DNA of 4,947 bases from a virus (lineage: Duplodnaviria; Heunggongvirae; Uroviricota; Caudoviricetes). The stretch lies in the IMG/VR virus record IMGVR_UViG_2740892439_000004, positions 1 through 4,947 of that record. One strand, 5' to 3'. The notes under the pieces were generated by a model. That model worked only from the letters and a program-made list of their open reading frames with translations, was not told where the DNA came from and did not search any database. Made by a program: the position numbers and the translations under genes. This document shows, piece by piece, positions 226 through 4,947 of this stretch (position 1 is the first letter of the stretch; every line of letters begins with the position of its first letter).

Positions 226-714
226 ATGAACCAATTAGAAGAAAAGCTTCAAAGAATGATTTCCTTATACAAGGAAGATAACTGCCAAAAAGTTCCTGAA
301 AACATCGCAGAGTTAATGGAATTGGCAAGTGAATTTTCTGGCATGCTTAAGTCGTCAGGTGTTCGGTCAGCGTTCTTTGTTGAAATGCTGATGCACGGCG
401 GACTTATGGCAACAATGAGACGTGTAATGGAAGACCAGAGAAAAGAACCTCCTCAGGTATACGTTTTGTCATCGAAGAAAACTGGGCTAACCAAAATTGG
501 GTATTCATCCAACATTCCACAACGCATCAAATCGCTTGGCAACTCTGGACCAGACTGCTTGAAGCTTGAGTGCCTGATCCCTGGTGGAAGAGAAACTGAA
601 AACATGCTTCATCGCAAATTTGCCGCAAAGAGAAAGCACGGTGAATGGTTCGCCCTGTCCAAGGATGACATTGAGGGATTGAAATCTGTAGCGATTACTT
701 CTGATGGCTATTAA
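226..714 (+). CDS. T5orf172 / GIY-YIG-like domain protein with an uncharacterised N-terminal helical domain (163 aa)
   Basis: ORF-track frame 190..714. I prefer the ATG at 226 (MNQLEEK...) because AAGG at 212-215 sits about 10 nt upstream, whereas 190 is a GTG with no RBS. The C-terminal half carries the motif series VYVL...GLTKIGYS...RIKSL...ENMLHRKF...GEWF that I recognise as the T5orf172 (PF10544-type, GIY-YIG-related) fold. Very AT-rich codon usage compared with the lambda structural genes downstream. Stop TAA at 712-714. Confidence 0.75.
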   Translation: MNQLEEKLQRMISLYKEDNCQKVPENIAELMELASEFSGMLKSSGVRSAFFVEMLMHGGLMATMRRVMEDQRKEPPQVYVLSSKKTGLTKIGYSSNIPQRIKSLGNSGPDCLKLECLIPGGRETENMLHRKFAAKRKHGEWFALSKDDIEGLKSVAITSDGY

Positions 715-1392: not shown

Positions 1393-1803
1393 TTAGTGCG
1401 GAAATATTTGTGTAGTGTTCTGAATGTTCTCAGTAAAGAGTAATGAATTATCAAAGGTATAGTAATACCTTTTGTTTTCGTGGATATTTGTAATCCATCT
1501 GAAAACCCCTGCTGTAGCAAGATTTTTCCTGTATTCGTAAAATGATAACTCTCCTGATTTGAATCCTTTTAATGTGGCTTCTATAAGGCATTTATTTTTT
1601 GAAAATCTTACATTTACAACCTTACCCTGTCCTTTTATTAAAACCGTATTATCGTTTTCAAGAACAAGATGAATATTCTCTGTGGCTAAATAGTAAATGT
1701 AATGTGAGACATTGTGACGTTTTAGTTCAGAATAAAACCAGTGATAGTTTAAATTATTTCGCACTTTATCGAATATTTGTTTAAAAATGGCAACCTGAGC
1801 CAT
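1393..1803 (-). CDS. hypothetical protein (136 aa), Tyr/Asn-rich, no family recognised
   Basis: ORF-track frame 1393..1818. I prefer the second Met (MAQVAIFKQ..., ATG at 1803) because GGAAGG lies 7 nt upstream on the minus strand. A 400+ nt open frame in very AT-rich DNA, where stops are frequent, argues for real coding. The antisense + ORF 1599..1784 is treated as a shadow. Confidence 0.6.
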
Positions 1804-1860
1804 TGTAGTACCTTCCATGTGATATGAGGGTACCTAGTCTGCACGATTATCTAAATTGCT

Positions 1861-2094
1861 TCAATCTGGTCTGACCTGCTTTCTGAGCAATTCAGTAATG
1901 TCACTCTTTTCTTTGTTTGCTTCAGGCGAAACTCTTTTTTCTGAGCACAGTCTTCGGCGGCAGGCTTCAATGACCCAGGCTGAGAAGTTCCCAGACCCTT
2001 TTTGATCAAGAGCGATGTTAATTTGTTCAATCATTTGGTTAGGAAAGCGGATGTTGCGGGTTGTTGTTCTGCGGGTTCTGTTCTTCGTTGACAT
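1861..2094 (-). CDS. ribbon-helix-helix (Arc/CopG-like) DNA-binding protein (77 aa)
   Basis: The N-terminal region reads as a beta-strand (RNIRFP), helix A (NQMIEQINIALDQKG), a G-x-N turn, then helix B (NFSAWVIEACRRRL), matching RHH architecture. It is preceded by a basic Arg/Thr-rich tail and followed by a charged C-terminal extension. It lies 57 bp upstream of, and co-oriented with, the 136-aa gene. Confidence 0.6.
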   Translation of the reverse strand: MSTKNRTRRTTTRNIRFPNQMIEQINIALDQKGSGNFSAWVIEACRRRLCSEKRVSPEANKEKSDITELLRKQVRPD

Positions 2095-2163
2095 GAGGTT
2101 GTCCCGTATTCAGTGTCGCTGATTTGTATTGTCTGAAGTTGTTTTTACGTTAAGTTGATGCAG

Positions 2164-2196
2164 ATCAATTAATATGATACCTGCGTCATAATTGAT
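2164..2196. promoter_or_regulatory. imperfect inverted repeat (ATCAATTAatATGA ... TCATAATTGAT), candidate operator upstream of the RHH gene
   Basis: Arms at 2164-2177 and 2186-2196 are reverse-complementary except for a 2-nt indel, centred on tacctgcg, and sit about 70-100 bp upstream of the minus-strand RHH start in AT-rich DNA. No promoter hexamers could be assigned confidently. Confidence 0.25.
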
Positions 2197-2242
2197 TATT
2201 TGACGTGGTTTGATGGCGTAGATGCACGTTGTGACATGCAGA

Positions 2243-2465
2243 TGATAATTATTATCATTTTGCGGGTCCTTTCCGGCGATCCGACAGGTTACGGGGCGGC
2301 GACCTCGCGGGTTTTTGCTATTTATGAAAATTTTCCGGTTTAAGGTGTTTCCGTTCTTCTTCGTCGTAACTTAATGTTTTTATTTAAAATACCCCCTGAA
2401 AAGAAAGGAAACGACAGGTGCTGAAAACGAGCTTTTGGGCCTTTGTCGTTTCCTTTCTCTGTTTT
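2243..2465 (+). other. cos: lambdoid cohesive-end site cos (cosQ-side sequence, cosN, cosB with R3-I1-R2-R1)
   Basis: 2262-2293 reads ttgcgggtcctttccggcgatccgacaggttacg, the lambda right end with two mismatches. 2294-2305 is GGGCGGCGACCT, the lambda 12-nt cohesive end, followed by cgcgggtttttgctatttatgaaaattttccgg. R3-like gtttccgttcttc lies at 2347-2359 and an A/T-rich I1 region at about 2367-2391. R2 (2402-2416, agaaaggaaacgaca) and R1 (2444-2458, tgtcgtttcctttct) are an exact 15-bp inverted repeat. About 95% identical to the lambda sequence as I recall it. A palindrome GATAATtATTATC sits at 2243-2255. Confidence 0.9.
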
Positions 2466-2482
2466 TGGCCGTGGAATGAACA

Positions 2483-2671
2483 ATGGAAGTCAACAAAAAG
2501 CAGCTGGCTGACATTTTCGGTGCGAGTATCCGTACCATTCAGAACTGGCAGGAACAGGGAATGCCCGTTCTGCGAGGCGGTGGCAAGGGTAATGAGGTGC
2601 TTTATGACTCTGCCGCCGTCATAAAATGGTATGCCGAAATCTGGCGGATCCGGCGCGTGAGTTCACCATGA
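2483..2671 (+). pseudogene. nu1: terminase small subunit Nu1, truncated after codon 52 by an internal deletion
   Basis: MEVNKKQLADIFGASIRTIQNWQEQGMPVLRGGGKGNEVLYDSAAVIKWYAE matches the lambda gpNu1 N-terminus (winged-HTH DNA-binding region). After nucleotide 2639 the frame reads IWRIRRVSSP and stops at 2669-2671. Confidence 0.85.
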
Positions 2672-2736
2672 TTCAGTCAGCACCGCTGATGCTGCTGGCT
2701 GACCCTGATGAGTTCGTGTCCGTACAACTGGCGTAA
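2640..2736 (+). pseudogene. E: 3-prime remnant of major capsid gene E (last ~32 codons)
   Basis: The frame ending at TAA 2734-2736 reads ...LADPAREFTMIQSAPLMLLADPDEFVSVQLA, matching the lambda gpE C-terminus (...DPAREFTMIQSAPLMLLADPDEFVSVQLA). It has no start codon and is out of frame with the Nu1 stub. Confidence 0.7.
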
Positions 2737-2777
2737 TCATGGCCCTTCGGGGCCATTGTTTCTCTGTGGAGGAGTCC

Positions 2778-3176
2778 ATGACGAAAGATGAACTGATTGC
2801 CCGTCTCCGCTCGCTGGGTGAACAACTGAACCGTGATGTCAGCCTGACGGGGACGAAAGAAGAACTGGCGCTCCGTGTGGCAGAGCTGGAAGAGGAGCTT
2901 GATGACACGGATGAAACTGCCGGTCAGGACACCCCTCTCAGCCGGGAAAATGTGCTGACCGGACATGAAAATGAGGTGGGATCAGCGCAGCCGGATACCG
3001 TGATTCTGGATACGTCTGAACTGGTCACGGTCGTGGCACTGGTGAAGCTGCATACTGATGCACTTCACGCCACGCGGGATGAACCTGTGGCATTTGTGCT
3101 GCCGGGAACGGCGTTTCGTGTCTCTGCCGGTGTGGCAGCCGAAATGACAGAGCGCGGCCTGGCCAGAATGCAATAA
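2778..3176 (+). CDS. FI: head-tail joining / DNA packaging protein FI (132 aa)
   Basis: MTKDELIARLRSLGEQLNRDVSLTGTKEELALRVAELEEELDDTDETAGQDTPLSRENVL... matches lambda gpFI almost exactly. GGAGGA lies 4 nt before the ATG at 2778. The ORF-track start at 2739 is an upstream in-frame extension. Stop TAA at 3174-3176. Confidence 0.9.
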   Translation: MTKDELIARLRSLGEQLNRDVSLTGTKEELALRVAELEEELDDTDETAGQDTPLSRENVLTGHENEVGSAQPDTVILDTSELVTVVALVKLHTDALHATRDEPVAFVLPGTAFRVSAGVAAEMTERGLARMQ

Positions 3177-3187
3177 CGGGAGGCGCT

Positions 3188-3541
3188 GTGGCTGATTTCG
3201 ATAACCTGTTCGATGCTGCCATTGCCTGCGCCGATGAAACGATACGCGGGTACATGGGAACGTCAGCCACCATGACATCCGGTGAGCAGTCCGGTGCTGT
3301 GATACGTGGTGTTTTTGATGACCCTGAAAATATCAGCTATGCCGGACAGGGCGTGCGCGTTGAAGGCTCCAGCCCGTCCCTGTTTGTCCGGACTGATGAT
3401 GTGCGGCAGCTGCGGCGCGGCGACACGCTGACCATCGGTGAGGAAAACTTCTGGATAGACCGGATTTCGCCGGATGATGGCGGAAGCTGTCATCTCTGGC
3501 TTGGGCGGGGCGTACCGCCTGCCGTTAACCGTCGCCGCTGA
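3188..3541 (+). CDS. FII: head completion protein FII (117 aa)
   Basis: MADFDNLFDAAIACADETIRGYMGTSATMTSGEQSGAVIRGVFDDPENISYAGQGVRVEGSSPSLFVRTDDVRQLRRGDTLTIGEENFWIDRISPDDGGSCHLWLGRGVPPAVNRRR matches lambda gpFII with a few substitutions. GTG start with GGGAGG 4 nt upstream. Confidence 0.9.
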   Translation: MADFDNLFDAAIACADETIRGYMGTSATMTSGEQSGAVIRGVFDDPENISYAGQGVRVEGSSPSLFVRTDDVRQLRRGDTLTIGEENFWIDRISPDDGGSCHLWLGRGVPPAVNRRR

Positions 3542-3552
3542 AAGGGGGATGT

Positions 3553-4130
3553 ATGGCCATAAAAGGTCTTGAGCAGGCCGTTGAAAACCTCAGCCGTATC
3601 AGCAGAACGGCGGTGCCCGGTGCCGCCGCAATGGCCATTAACCGCGTTGCTTCATCCGCGATATCGCAGTCGGTGGTACAGGTTGCCCGTGAGACAAAGG
3701 TACGCCGGAAACTGGTAAAGGAAAGGGCCAGGCTGAAAAGGGCCACGGTCAAAAATCCGCAGGCCAGAATCAAGGTTAACCGGGGGGATTTGCCCGTAAT
3801 AAAGCTGGGTAACGCGCGGGTTGTCCTGTCCCGACGCAGGCGTCGTAAAAAGGGGCAGCGTTCAGCCTGAAAGGTGGCGGCAGTGTGCTTGTGGTGGGTA
3901 ACCGTCGTATTCCCGGCGCGTTTATTCAGCAACTGAAAAACGGCCGGTGGCATGTTATGCAGCGTGTGGCCGGGAAAAACCGTTACCCCATTGATGTGGT
4001 GAAAATCCCGATGGCGGTGCCGCTGACCACGGCGTTTAAACAGAATATTGAACGGATACGGCGTGAACGTCTTCCGAAAGAGCTGGGCTATGCGCTGCAG
4101 CATCAACTGAGGATGGTAATAAAGCGATGA
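3553..4130 (+). pseudogene. Z: tail completion protein Z, disrupted by a 1-nt frameshift
   Basis: 3553-3870 encodes the gpZ N-terminus (MAIKGLEQAVENLSRIS...RRRRRKKGQRS) and then stops. 3885-4130, in another frame, encodes the gpZ C-terminus (LVVGNRRIPGAFIQQLKNGRWHVMQR...HQLRMVIKR). The total span is 578 nt, one short of an intact 579-nt Z, placing a single-base deletion near 3862-3867. Confidence 0.8.
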
Positions 4131-4522
4131 AACATACTGAACTCCGTGCAGCCGTACTGGATGCACTGGAGAAGCATGACACCGGGGCGACGTTTTTTGA
4201 TGGTCGCCCCGCTGTTTTTGATGAGGCGGATTTTCCGGCAGTTGCCGTTTATCTCACCGGCGCTGAATACACGGGCGAAGAGCTGGACAGCGATACCTGG
4301 CAGGCGGAGCTGCATATCGAAGTTTTCCTGCCTGCTCAGGTGCCGGATTCAGAGCTGGATGCGTGGATGGAGTCCCGGATTTATCCGGTGATGAGCGATA
4401 TCCCGGCACTGTCAGATTTGATCACCAGTATGGTGGCCAGCGGCTATGACTACCGGCGCGACGATGATGCGGGCCTGTGGAGTTCAGCCGATCTGACTTA
4501 TGTCATTACCTATGAAATGTGA
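4127..4522 (+). CDS. U: tail terminator protein U (131 aa)
   Basis: MKHTELRAAVLDALEKHDTGATFFDGRPAVFDEADFPAVAVYLTGAEYTGEELDSDTWQAELHIEVFLP... matches lambda gpU. Its ATG overlaps the Z stop (ATGA at 4127-4130), as in lambda. Confidence 0.9.
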   Translation: MKHTELRAAVLDALEKHDTGATFFDGRPAVFDEADFPAVAVYLTGAEYTGEELDSDTWQAELHIEVFLPAQVPDSELDAWMESRIYPVMSDIPALSDLITSMVASGYDYRRDDDAGLWSSADLTYVITYEM

Positions 4523-4529
4523 GGACGCT

Positions 4530-4550
4530 ATGCCTGTACGGAAACATTGA
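4530..4550 (+). pseudogene. V: remnant of major tail protein gene V (start plus 2 codons, then deletion junction)
   Basis: GAGGA RBS followed by atgcctgtac, identical to the lambda V start (MPV). The sequence diverges from lambda at 4540 and the frame stops at 4548-4550 (MPVRKH*). Confidence 0.6.
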
Positions 4551-4947
4551 CTTTATCGAGATCTCGGCGCGCGGTCTGCCTTCTTCGCTTACTGCTGATA
4601 ATGTATCTCGTTACCTGAGTATACGCCGTTTAGGGCCAACCGGGCTAATCAATAGCATGCAAATGCGTTACGGCCTGGTTAAAGATGATGGCTTTATTGA
4701 GGTTTGGGCCTTCCAGCGTGCATTTATCAACGGCGCAAAGGTTGCGGTACTGGCGCAGACGGCACGCACGGAATTATACATTCCAGACGGATTTGTTAAG
4801 CAAACCGCCGCGCCTTCTGGATATGTTGAAAGCCCCGTTGTAAGGATTTACGACCAGTTAAACAAGCCGACTAAAGCAGATTTGGGTCTTTCTAATGCTA
4901 TGCTTACAGGCGCTTTCGGTCTTGGCGGTAGCGGGATAGCAACAACC
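4540..4947 (+). CDS. 5-prime-truncated ORF fragment of unknown function (136 codons, runs off the window end), fused at the V deletion junction
   Basis: Frame 1 is open from 4516 to the window end (...GNIDFIEISARGLPSSLTADNVSRYLSIRRLGPTGLINSMQMRYGLVKDDGFIEVWAFQRAFINGAKVAVLAQTARTELYIPDGFVKQTAAPSGYVESPVVRIYDQLNKPTKADLGLSNAMLTGAFGLGGSGIATT). All three minus-strand frames are interrupted by stops every 180 nt or less here. No start codon with an RBS, and I do not recognise it as a lambda protein. The first in-frame ATG (4657) has no SD. Confidence 0.45.

Follow-up and report, generated by a model that had tools for sequence, protein, structure and literature searches.

The window, the whole stretch of 4,947 nucleotides that was analysed, matches NZ_CM128587.1 from E. 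coli strain 300081 at 99.96%. Comparison of the RefSeq annotation with K-12 places fimZ and a tRNA-Arg gene (argU) on one side of the locus, and appY, ompT and envY on the other, which is the insertion position of the cryptic prophage DLP12. The late region also follows DLP12 in its order (rusA, ylcG, quuD, porin, essD, ybcV, ylcI, cos, Nu1 homologue), and window positions 1932-2639 show 96.6% identity to DLP12 of K-12. The remnant is ~20 kb in size. Its integrase is annotated in RefSeq as a partial pseudogene without the N-terminus, and the 54 features annotated at the locus include no xis, cI/cro repressor or O/P replication genes. According to the annotation, quuD is interrupted by IS3 and the early region carries IS1. 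The following features were identified in the window:

1393-1818, minus strand: ybcV-like DUF1398 gene; 31.5% GC, Pfam DUF1398 3e-43, phrog_413, RefSeq annotation
1861-2094, minus strand: YlcI/YnfO-family (DUF3950) gene, also present in K-12 DLP12 and at the right end of lambda
2264-2270, plus strand: cosQ heptamer GGGTCCT, identical to lambda in the alignment, as is its distance from cosN
2292-2307, plus strand: cosN, the cohesive-end sequence GGGCGGCGACCT at 2294-2305 with 2 bp of flank on either side
2343-2458, plus strand: cosB, comprising R3, the I1 IHF region, inverted R2 and R1
2483-2671, plus strand: truncated terminase small subunit (Nu1), codons 1-52 at 2483-2638, then 10 out-of-frame codons and a stop; RefSeq pseudogene
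2639-2649, no strand: deletion junction 1, where Nu1 codon 52 is fused to the 3' end of E
2643-2736, plus strand: 3' fragment of E (major capsid), last ~30 codons and stop
2778-3176, plus strand: FI (DNA-packaging chaperone), intact; Pfam Packaging_FI 5e-59
3188-3541, plus strand: FII (head-tail joining protein), intact
3553-4130, plus strand: Z (tail completion), intact in the RefSeq copy and frameshifted in the window copy, where one C is missing at 3865
4127-4522, plus strand: U (tail terminator), intact; Pfam Phage_tail_U 8e-62
4530-4947, plus strand: V start codon and 2 codons, then a 5'-truncated tail-fibre gene; deletion junction 2 at 4539/4540

The loss at junction 1 corresponds to lambda ~348-7060 and takes in the C-terminus of Nu1, A, W, B, C, Nu3, D and the greater part of E. 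Microhomology at this imprecise junction is at most ~4 nt, and a few mismatched bases and one extra base distinguish the junction from all E alleles examined. The second deletion spans V through J, from V codon 3 into a side-tail-fibre gene, and the truncated fibre reading frame (876 codons, with an S74 peptidase domain at its end) runs past the window. Two illegitimate deletions would account for the loss of the terminase, portal, protease/scaffold, decoration, capsid and tail-tube-to-tip genes, and cos, directly to the left of the first, would owe its survival solely to that position. The locus was found to lack A, W, B, C, Nu3, D, an intact E and the V-J genes. A first-pass annotation of this DNA had described an element devoid of any gene for building a head or cutting cos; terminase, A-E and V-J are indeed gone, but FI, FII, Z and U remain, at ~98% identity to lambda. 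Its description was correct as to cos and the Nu1 stub, and incorrect in passing over these morphogenetic genes and the position of the AT-rich genes on the cosQ side.

The Nu1/E junction is found in 11 of 5,426 complete genomes. GPEC206-621 shares it and has Z' fused to Rhs/T6SS DNA, while in ES2 the same junction is accompanied by Z' joined to a fibre fragment, followed by tssI. Because these sister genomes carry different further deletions, the locus is still eroding. The Nu1/E fusion is a rare, recent deletion, and selection for the element is unsupported. At the same locus, ETEC6 has a complete Nu1-to-J module, and its YlcI, FII, Z and U proteins are identical. Its cosQ and cosN are identical as well, with a divergent cosB and Nu1 that exemplify a different specificity; the packaging-specificity module has been exchanged cleanly here, with the break precisely at the cosN/cosB boundary. 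The 300081 locus represents a further lineage-specific path of DLP12 decay, and documents an ancestor with a complete lambda-like head and tail module.

With good confidence, we regard the region as the decaying late segment of a DLP12-family cryptic lambdoid prophage in tRNA-Arg argU of E. coli 300081, in which cos is a passive relic from which any packaging would proceed without termination at cos.

The cos site

Window positions 1990-2293 align with lambda 48199-48502 and positions 2294-2639 with lambda 1-347, lambda nucleotide 1 falling at 2294. Identity is ~95-97% across roughly 650 bp, and homology of this extent rules out a chance resemblance. The 12-nt 5' cohesive-end sequence GGGCGGCGACCT is present and the surrounding 26 bp are those of lambda; cosN is the same in lambda, K-12 DLP12 and four isolated phages. 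Judged from the sequence, nicks are expected at 2293/2294 on the top strand and at 2305/2306 on the bottom strand. The cosQ heptamer corresponds to lambda 48473-48479. cosQ is required for termination of packaging (PMC4669245).

Within cosB, the I1 IHF-site segment between R3 and R2 is identical to lambda, as is the inverted R2 (2402-2417). R3 (2343-2358) differs by one base, a T at 2346 that corresponds to C>T at lambda bp 53, and the sole difference in R1 (2443-2458) is C>T at its first base (lambda bp 151). The extent of R3 (bp 50-65) was taken from PMC9026076, and R2 and R1 were located through the shared 16-mer. The R sites keep the order and orientation of lambda, the spacing between cosN and R3 is unchanged, and the stretch from cosN to R2 is free of indels; a 1-bp deletion relative to lambda lies between R2 and R1, and the spacer carries one substitution, C>T at lambda bp 23. 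The elements of a lambda-type cos are thus all present: the cohesive end in cosN, cosQ upstream, and a cosB of the form R3-I1-R2(inverted)-R1 with the specificity of lambda, not of phage 21. The fully formed packaging site noted in the first-pass annotation is borne out, with cosQ, cosN, I1 and R2 as in lambda and R3 and R1 each one base off.

It is unlikely that the changes at R3 bp 53, spacer bp 23 and R1 bp 151, together with the 1-bp deletion between R2 and R1, abolish recognition by terminase. R3 is the most critical R site, its contact segment is bp 55-63, and deleterious R3 mutations are known at bp 56, 58 and 59 (PMC9026076). All three R sequences of lambda share the C found at bp 53, and the bp 23 change was absent from every functional phage examined, both of which would fit a dead site. 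However, C53T falls outside the contact segment, away from the known harmful mutations, and is common to K-12 DLP12 and phage 2H10; the distance from cosN to R3 is that of lambda; and all substitutions in cos except that at bp 23 recur in the isolated phages PhiR26_1, 2H10, PhiR42_1 or PhiR49_1. The 1-bp deletion is likewise present in viable phages and in K-12 DLP12, whose cos/nu1 region is functional in lambda hybrids. On sequence grounds, the cos of the 300081 remnant looks like a competent substrate for a terminase of lambda specificity, which makes cleavage and the start of packaging in trans plausible.

Initiation, direction and termination of packaging

In a cell that contained proheads and a terminase of the lambda type, the enzyme would bind R3, R2 and R1 together with IHF and nick cosN at the two positions given above. 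Translocation proceeds from the cosB-bearing end (PMC4669245). Terminase would be kept on that end, and packaging would run rightward via FI-U, the fibre remnant, appY, ompT, envY, nfrAB and cus toward ent/fep. The AT-rich ybcV-like gene sits on the cosQ (left) side of cosN, so that translocation would lead away from the AT-rich genes and leave them unpackaged. The suggestion that they would travel as cargo is not supported.

A search with ACGGGGCGGCGACCTC, allowing up to 3 mismatches, found no other cos in the 64 kb upstream or the 65 kb downstream, and the ~129 kb covered contain just this one site. Termination by a cos terminase requires a second cos, and DNA protruding from the head blocks tail joining; cos phages are generally deemed non-transducing for this reason. 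Packaging may therefore start but not finish. Termination by cos cutting would be impossible, as there is no other cos within reach and the element is unable to form concatemers through excision or replication, and the expected products would be one-cos, tail-less, essentially non-infectious filled heads rather than transducing satellite particles. Of the earlier proposal that a helper phage could package this DNA in trans, cleavage and initiation are plausible from the sequence, whereas termination fails on the single cos between -64 kb and +65 kb.

A resident helper was sought in about 0.5 Mb of the 4.7 Mb chromosome of 300081, and no Nu1-family TerS was found at the sites inspected. The prophage at the attλ site looks complete, and its TerS/TerL, portal and capsid module is non-lambda. 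At the Qin site, the cos of the prophage is gifsy-like (GGGTCCT ... GGGCGGGAGCGT), its TerS belongs to DUF1441 and shows no relationship to Nu1 (E 4.6), and its Q gene is disrupted by IS3. No packaging genes were present in a Rac-like remnant, and three other 50-kb probes contained no lambdoid prophage. Two further short matches to Nu1 or E occur elsewhere in the chromosome.

One-ended packaging, resembling that in 'doc' particles or lateral transduction, could in principle give rare but real transfer of the rightward genes (appY, ompT, envY, cus, ent/fep). We consider this improbable. The cosN and cosB sequences needed for initiation are present, and a step in Fels-1 coverage downstream of cos has been attributed to immature virions, as in excision-defective lambda. 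Very low rightward transfer would also be in keeping with historical reports of 'doc' particles from excision-defective lambda lysogens; these one-cos particles, reportedly studied by Sternberg and Weisberg in 1975, are said to carry host DNA. Against such transfer stand the need for a second cos, the obstruction of tail attachment by protruding DNA, the general view of cos phages as non-transducing, and the fact that the chromosomal copy is not amplified. The realistic and already demonstrated route for DNA beside the DLP12 cos is homologous recombination into an infecting lambdoid phage, stimulated by cos cutting.

The Nu1 stub and the satellite reading

Residues 1-52 of the stub are those of lambda TerS, and the tail IWRIRRVSSP followed by a stop brings the total to 62 residues. 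PDB entries 7LW0, 1J9I and 6HN7_B each align over residues 1-52, and the Pfam Phage_Nu1 match covers profile positions 1-52 of 164. With the TerS domain layout taken from PMC9026076, the stub contains the N-terminal wHTH DNA-binding domain and lacks the central oligomerisation and C-terminal TerL-binding domains, the Nu1 frame being left after codon 52. All of the homodimer-interface residues (I11, F12, G13, S43, A44, I47 and A51) are kept. The 52-residue DNA-binding stub reported earlier was thus recovered with a complete wHTH core.

Since the entire DNA-binding fold of TerS is retained, interference with a helper is conceivable. The 62-residue product, if expressed, might disturb lambda-type packaging by occupying the cosB R sites or by forming heterodimers with helper TerS at the interface of the DNA-binding domains, in the manner of Rpp, which blocks packaging through mimicry of the TerS DNA-binding domain. 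Helices a1 and a2, the wing and a3 up to residue 52 are retained, as are the interface residues and Y50, and crystallised constructs of the TerS DNA-binding domain comprise only 54-56 residues. The stub gave a marginal match to RppC (E 0.009). Such interference is nevertheless highly unlikely. The stub originated in a rare deletion, ends in an out-of-frame tail and is called a pseudogene by RefSeq, and late transcription is crippled because IS3 splits quuD. The window holds 3 promoter-like matches against 5.2 expected from shuffled sequence, and neither promoter nor terminator counts rose above shuffles; a single 10/12 promoter-like site at 2231-2258, upstream of cos, was accordingly rejected as evidence of stub expression. 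The predicted affinity of the DNA-binding domain homodimer is weak, and in vitro TerS binds DNA weakly and with little specificity. Nothing in the window matched Rfam at E<=0.1.

The stub also matched mad1 of the MADS system in PADLOC (1.8e-11). Assignment to mad1 was rejected, as full-length lambda Nu1 and K-12 NohD score equally, which indicates generic wHTH similarity. In MADS, mad1 lies within a mad1-8 operon with mad6-8 mandatory, and no mad genes were annotated near the stub; mad1 is moreover accessory and dispensable for defence. It is similarly very doubtful that the stub, as a DNA-binding and dimerisation core without oligomerisation and TerL-binding domains, poisons an incoming terminase as an Rpp-like anti-packaging defence, possibly with the chromosomal cos as a terminase sink. 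If true, this would be a defence born of simple truncation, but nothing here supports inhibition of lambda packaging.

Transfer in the manner of cos-type satellites, in which a lambdoid terminase would package the element and its accessory genes into helper capsids, is exceedingly unlikely: an apparently intact cos, the precedent of a defective prophage packaged through a shared cos in O157 Sakai and the transfer by lambda of plasmids bearing a cloned lambda cos speak for it, but the cargo genes are on the unpackaged side, cos is single, and nothing in the ~20-kb remnant would generate multimers. Phage-inducible chromosomal islands (PICIs) have a functional integrase with excision, whereas here the integrase is a partial pseudogene and xis is missing; alpA, pri-rep and replication origin genes are missing from the annotated locus features, and in PICIs delta-int and delta-alpA mutants yield <1 transductant. 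Rpp is missing too, the only wHTH protein is the truncated Nu1, and cosB is of the lambda phage type, whereas PICIs have a specific cosB that is distinct from the helper's. Membership among PICIs or satellites was rejected on these grounds. Of the earlier interpretation, the competent-looking lambda-type cos and the wHTH of the stub stand, while satellite transfer, termination, cargo and selection are unsupported.

The locus is an ordinary prophage relic without satellite mobility, because it has no way to excise, replicate or complete packaging. Its importance is slight beyond correct annotation. It illustrates that a prophage remnant stripped of everything needed to use a lambda-type cos can still keep the site intact; before such a site is taken as a sign of satellite-like mobility, excision, replication and the presence of a second cos (or concatemers) should be checked too.

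Comparison with known systems

The closest counterpart, DLP12 of K-12, has the same argU site, flanking genes and order of quuD, porin, lysis genes, ybcV, ylcI, cos and Nu1 homologue, and the cos regions, 96.6% identical, have four differences from lambda in common. K-12 DLP12 recombines with lambda at cos and supplies a functional nu1; recombination of lambda with DLP12 at cos is already published. Unlike the 300081 remnant, the K-12 prophage has a full-length nohD, followed by an A fragment (aaaD) that leads directly to tfaD. In 300081, Nu1 is cut at codon 52, E', FI, FII, Z, U and the fibre remnant are kept, a T5orf172/GIY-YIG-like gene replaces bor, quuD is split by IS3 and the porin is intact.

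Packaging of a defective lambdoid prophage by the terminase of another through a shared cos is also published. In O157 Sakai, Sp4, in which Nu1 is disrupted, is packaged by the Sp14 terminase (Asadulghani et al. 2009, PMC2669165). Sp4 resembles the present element as a lambdoid prophage without an intact terminase, in which cos is the same as in a co-resident phage. It differs in being excised and amplified, through regional replication driven by Sp5, before packaging (PMC2669165), whereas the 300081 element lacks both a functional integrase and a source of amplification, and the sites inspected contained no resident prophage of Nu1 specificity. Gram-negative PICIs with cos, such as EcCICFT073, have a lambda-like cosQ/cosN, no capsid genes, dependence on helper TerS/TerL and a small TerS-like wHTH protein (PMC6092414, PMC6739421). 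They carry int, alpA, pri-rep, Rpp and a cosB of their own and undergo excision and replication, all of which is absent here, where cosB is the phage's own type.

Cosmids demonstrate that a bare cosQ-cosN-cosB cassette suffices for packaging by lambda, but they are multicopy, and their multimers set two cos sites a headful apart, which a single chromosomal copy does not. The 'doc' lambda lysogens share with the 300081 locus a single chromosomal cos, from which, in the work attributed to Sternberg and Weisberg in 1975, packaging reportedly ran unidirectionally into host DNA without a terminating cos. In those lysogens, however, the prophage supplies the terminase and replicates in situ, whereas at the present single-copy locus everything would have to come from another phage.

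The DLP12 prophage of strain 300081 and its erosion

Over its entire span the window aligns with the chromosome of an E. coli isolate from human stool in Mozambique, strain 300081 (NZ_CM128587.1), differing from it at two positions only, 3016 (C vs A) and 3865 (one C missing). The C at 3016 is the lambda allele, RefSeq having A, while at 3865 a CCC run is one C short, which frameshifts gpZ in the window copy only; the intact Z protein is the same in RefSeq and in strain ETEC6. Both probably represent assembly-version or homopolymer differences. Gene order in the 45-kb context is fimZ, tRNA-Arg (argU), lambdoid prophage remnant, appY, ompT, envY, ybcH, and nfrA, and both position and gene neighbourhood are exactly those of the K-12 cryptic prophage DLP12. 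As a DLP12 cryptic prophage the element is of a known kind; what is new is its state of decay. It aligns to lambda in three blocks.

Correspondence of the window to lambda
1990-2293: equivalent of lambda 48199-48502
2294-2639: equivalent of lambda 1-347
2643-4539: equivalent of lambda 7068-8964 (98.2% identity)
4540 onward: tail-fibre DNA

Two deletions interrupt this correspondence: the first fuses Nu1 codon 52 to the final ~30 codons of E, and the second fuses V codon 3 to a point midway along a side-tail-fibre gene. The first-pass annotation held that every gene needed to build a head or cut cos was gone; FI, FII, Z, and U survive between the deletions, but none of what remains could make a capsid or cleave cos. 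At the same locus, ETEC6 (NZ_CP041627.1) has the module Nu1-A-W-B-C-D-E-FI-FII-Z-U-V-...-J-lom-stf in full. It shares identical YlcI, FII, Z, and U proteins with strain 300081, and its E'-U DNA matches the window at 99.5% identity; the locus therefore descends from a complete lambda-like morphogenetic region. The Nu1/E junction was found in 11 of 5,426 complete E. coli genomes. Among its sharers, GPEC206-621 has Z interrupted at window 3652 by a join to Rhs/T6SS DNA and has lost appY, ompT, and envY, and ES2 has Z cut at window 3900. Such differing extra deletions are the pattern of continuing neutral erosion, and because the junction is also rare, the locus is without sign of selection. In strain N1193, a different lambdoid prophage (L006 10382-11097) has independently undergone a deletion that joins the small-terminase gene to part of D (head decoration); A, W, B, and C are again gone, and cos persists. 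Lambdoid prophages may repeatedly lose their terminase-portal block.

Several neighbouring genes differ from current annotation or from K-12. On the chromosomal stretch around the window (L001), an 876-codon ORF (24520-27150; window 4520 onward) extends from the V' deletion junction across a tail-fibre body to a C-terminal S74 peptidase (intramolecular chaperone); RefSeq annotates its last 625 codons only, and its 5' portion is a fibre gene that is truncated and has no start of its own. A 162-aa T5orf172/MUG113 (GIY-YIG-like) protein at 226-714 (+) replaces bor of lambda and K-12 DLP12; it matches phrog_4284 strongly and the PADLOC candidate defence model PDC-S57 weakly (7e-6). Its gene is a possible moron or defence determinant. 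In strain 300081, IS3 splits quuD, the antiterminator gene of DLP12 (L001 16029-17673), whereas the sisters GPEC206-621 and ES2 have quuD intact. Beside it, an nmpC-like porin gene (L001 17863-18960) is intact, the K-12 copy being IS5-disrupted.

The cos site and the Nu1 stub

A full packaging site had been described from sequence, with packaged DNA expected to start at 2294. Alignment to lambda bears out the site and its coordinate: cosQ, cosN, and cosB are all in place and correctly located, and 2294 is lambda nucleotide 1.

Elements of the cos site
2264-2270: cosQ heptamer GGGTCCT
2294-2305: cohesive-end sequence GGGCGGCGACCT
2343-2358: R3
2402-2417: R2, inverted
2443-2458: R1

The bases flanking cosN are those of lambda, R3, R2, and R1 are ordered as in lambda, and the stretch from cosN to R2 is without indel. 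Substitutions fall at lambda bp 23, 53, 73, 102, 134, 145, 151, and 176, and bp 138 is absent. The bp 53 change lies in R3, outside the segment thought to contact TerS (bp 55-63), and does not coincide with bp 56, 58, or 59, where changes are known to be deleterious (PMC9026076). K-12 DLP12 has the bp 53, 73, and 102 changes and the bp 138 deletion in common with the window, and lambda-DLP12 recombinants that acquired the region next to cos, nu1 included, from DLP12 are viable (De Paepe et al. 2014). Of the cos alleles in a phage collection, the nearest are those of the isolated phages PhiR26_1 (98.8%), 2H10, PhiR42_1, and PhiR49_1, and bp 23, in the cosN-R3 spacer, is the sole substitution absent from all four. 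Since every other substitution occurs in at least one isolated phage, the cos is very probably competent for a terminase of lambda specificity.

Compared with the window (2243-2660), ETEC6 (L010 6789-7210) has the same cosQ and cosN up to ~lambda bp 44; beyond that point its cosB and the N-terminus of its Nu1 are wholly unlike those of the window and may be phage-21-like. This amounts to a clean exchange of packaging-specificity modules exactly at the cosN/cosB boundary. As ETEC6 shows, these modules differ sharply even among close relatives.

The 52-residue Nu1 DNA-binding stub was also correctly recognized: ORF 2483-2671 is identical to lambda TerS over residues 1-52 and ends in the tail IWRIRRVSSP. 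Within these residues fall the recognition helix (17-24) and wing (31-39) (PMC9026076), as well as the homodimer interface (I11, F12, G13, S43, A44, I47, and A51) known from structural literature. Because residues 52-65 are mobile in solution according to the same literature, and crystallised DNA-binding-domain constructs are 54-56 residues long, the stub keeps its core for DNA binding and dimerisation whole. Missing from it are the oligomerisation and TerL-binding domains. Interference by the stub with packaging is structurally conceivable but improbable. The 60-position PADLOC mad1 profile PDLC04133 matches the stub (2483-2638), lambda Nu1, and K-12 NohD each at ~1e-11; it is effectively a profile of the TerS DNA-binding domain, so any small terminase of lambda type will be called mad1 in defence-system scans.

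Sources of terminase

We inspected three of the other lambdoid prophages of strain 300081 as resident helpers, and none of the three offers lambda-type cosB specificity. The attλ-site prophage looks complete, with a TerS/TerL, portal, and capsid module differing from the lambda type. The prophage at the Qin site combines a full head-tail module with a gifsy-like cos whose cosQ is conserved (L019 8460-8520; GGGTCCT ... CACGGGGCGGGAGCGTCGCGG), upstream of a small terminase of the DUF1441 family, unrelated to Nu1; its cohesive end differs from that of lambda at four positions (7, 8, 9, and 11), and its Q gene is disrupted, truncated beside IS3. The Rac-like remnant lacks packaging genes. Two further short Nu1 or E matches lie elsewhere in the chromosome. 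A superinfecting lambda-like phage would in any case be the more likely source of terminase. A DUF4942 gene (L021 48974-50000) directly follows tRNA-Ser serW in strain 300081, and coordinate bookkeeping against K-12 suggests an inserted island of ~45-50 kb at this site, probably of CP4 type and not lambdoid.

Packaging in trans compared with known systems

The first-pass annotation proposed a cos-type satellite transferring AT-rich cargo. The integrase is annotated as a partial pseudogene, no xis, repressor, O/P, or other replication gene is among the annotated genes of the locus, and IS1 lies in the early region while quuD is split by IS3; the element is thus without autonomy. Lambda-type terminase starts at cosN and cosB and finishes at a downstream cosQ and cosN (PMC4669245), and when the terminal cut is missing, protruding DNA is reported to prevent tail attachment. 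No second cos was found as a match to ACGGGGCGGCGACCTC at ≤3 mismatches across 64 kb upstream and 65 kb downstream. Because terminase remains on the cosB-bearing end after nicking and translocates that DNA (PMC4669245), packaging from this cos would proceed rightward via FI-U, the fibre remnant, appY, ompT, envY, nfrAB, a T6SS vgr gene, and cus, toward ent/fep. The ybcV-like gene (31.5% GC), supposed AT-rich cargo, lies on the opposite side of cosN, as does the GIY-YIG-like gene. The pseudogene integrase, missing replication genes, lone cos within the flanks scanned, and cargo on the unpackaged side argue against a cos-type satellite, and with no sign of selection either, satellite-like mobilisation is not supported.

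Packaging of a terminase-defective lambdoid prophage in trans via a shared cos is already documented: in O157 Sakai, defective Sp4 is packaged by the Sp14 terminase, although there excision and amplification come first (Asadulghani et al. 2009, PMC2669165). The cos PICIs, packaged by lambda and phage 80, require int, alpA, pri-rep, and Rpp, and their delta-int and delta-alpA mutants show no transfer (PMC6092414, PMC6739421). One-cos packaging from unexcised lambda prophages is cited as known since 1975. The DLP12 cos region is a known hot spot of recombination with infecting lambda (De Paepe et al. 2014), and such recombination is the realistic route by which genes beside cos could move.
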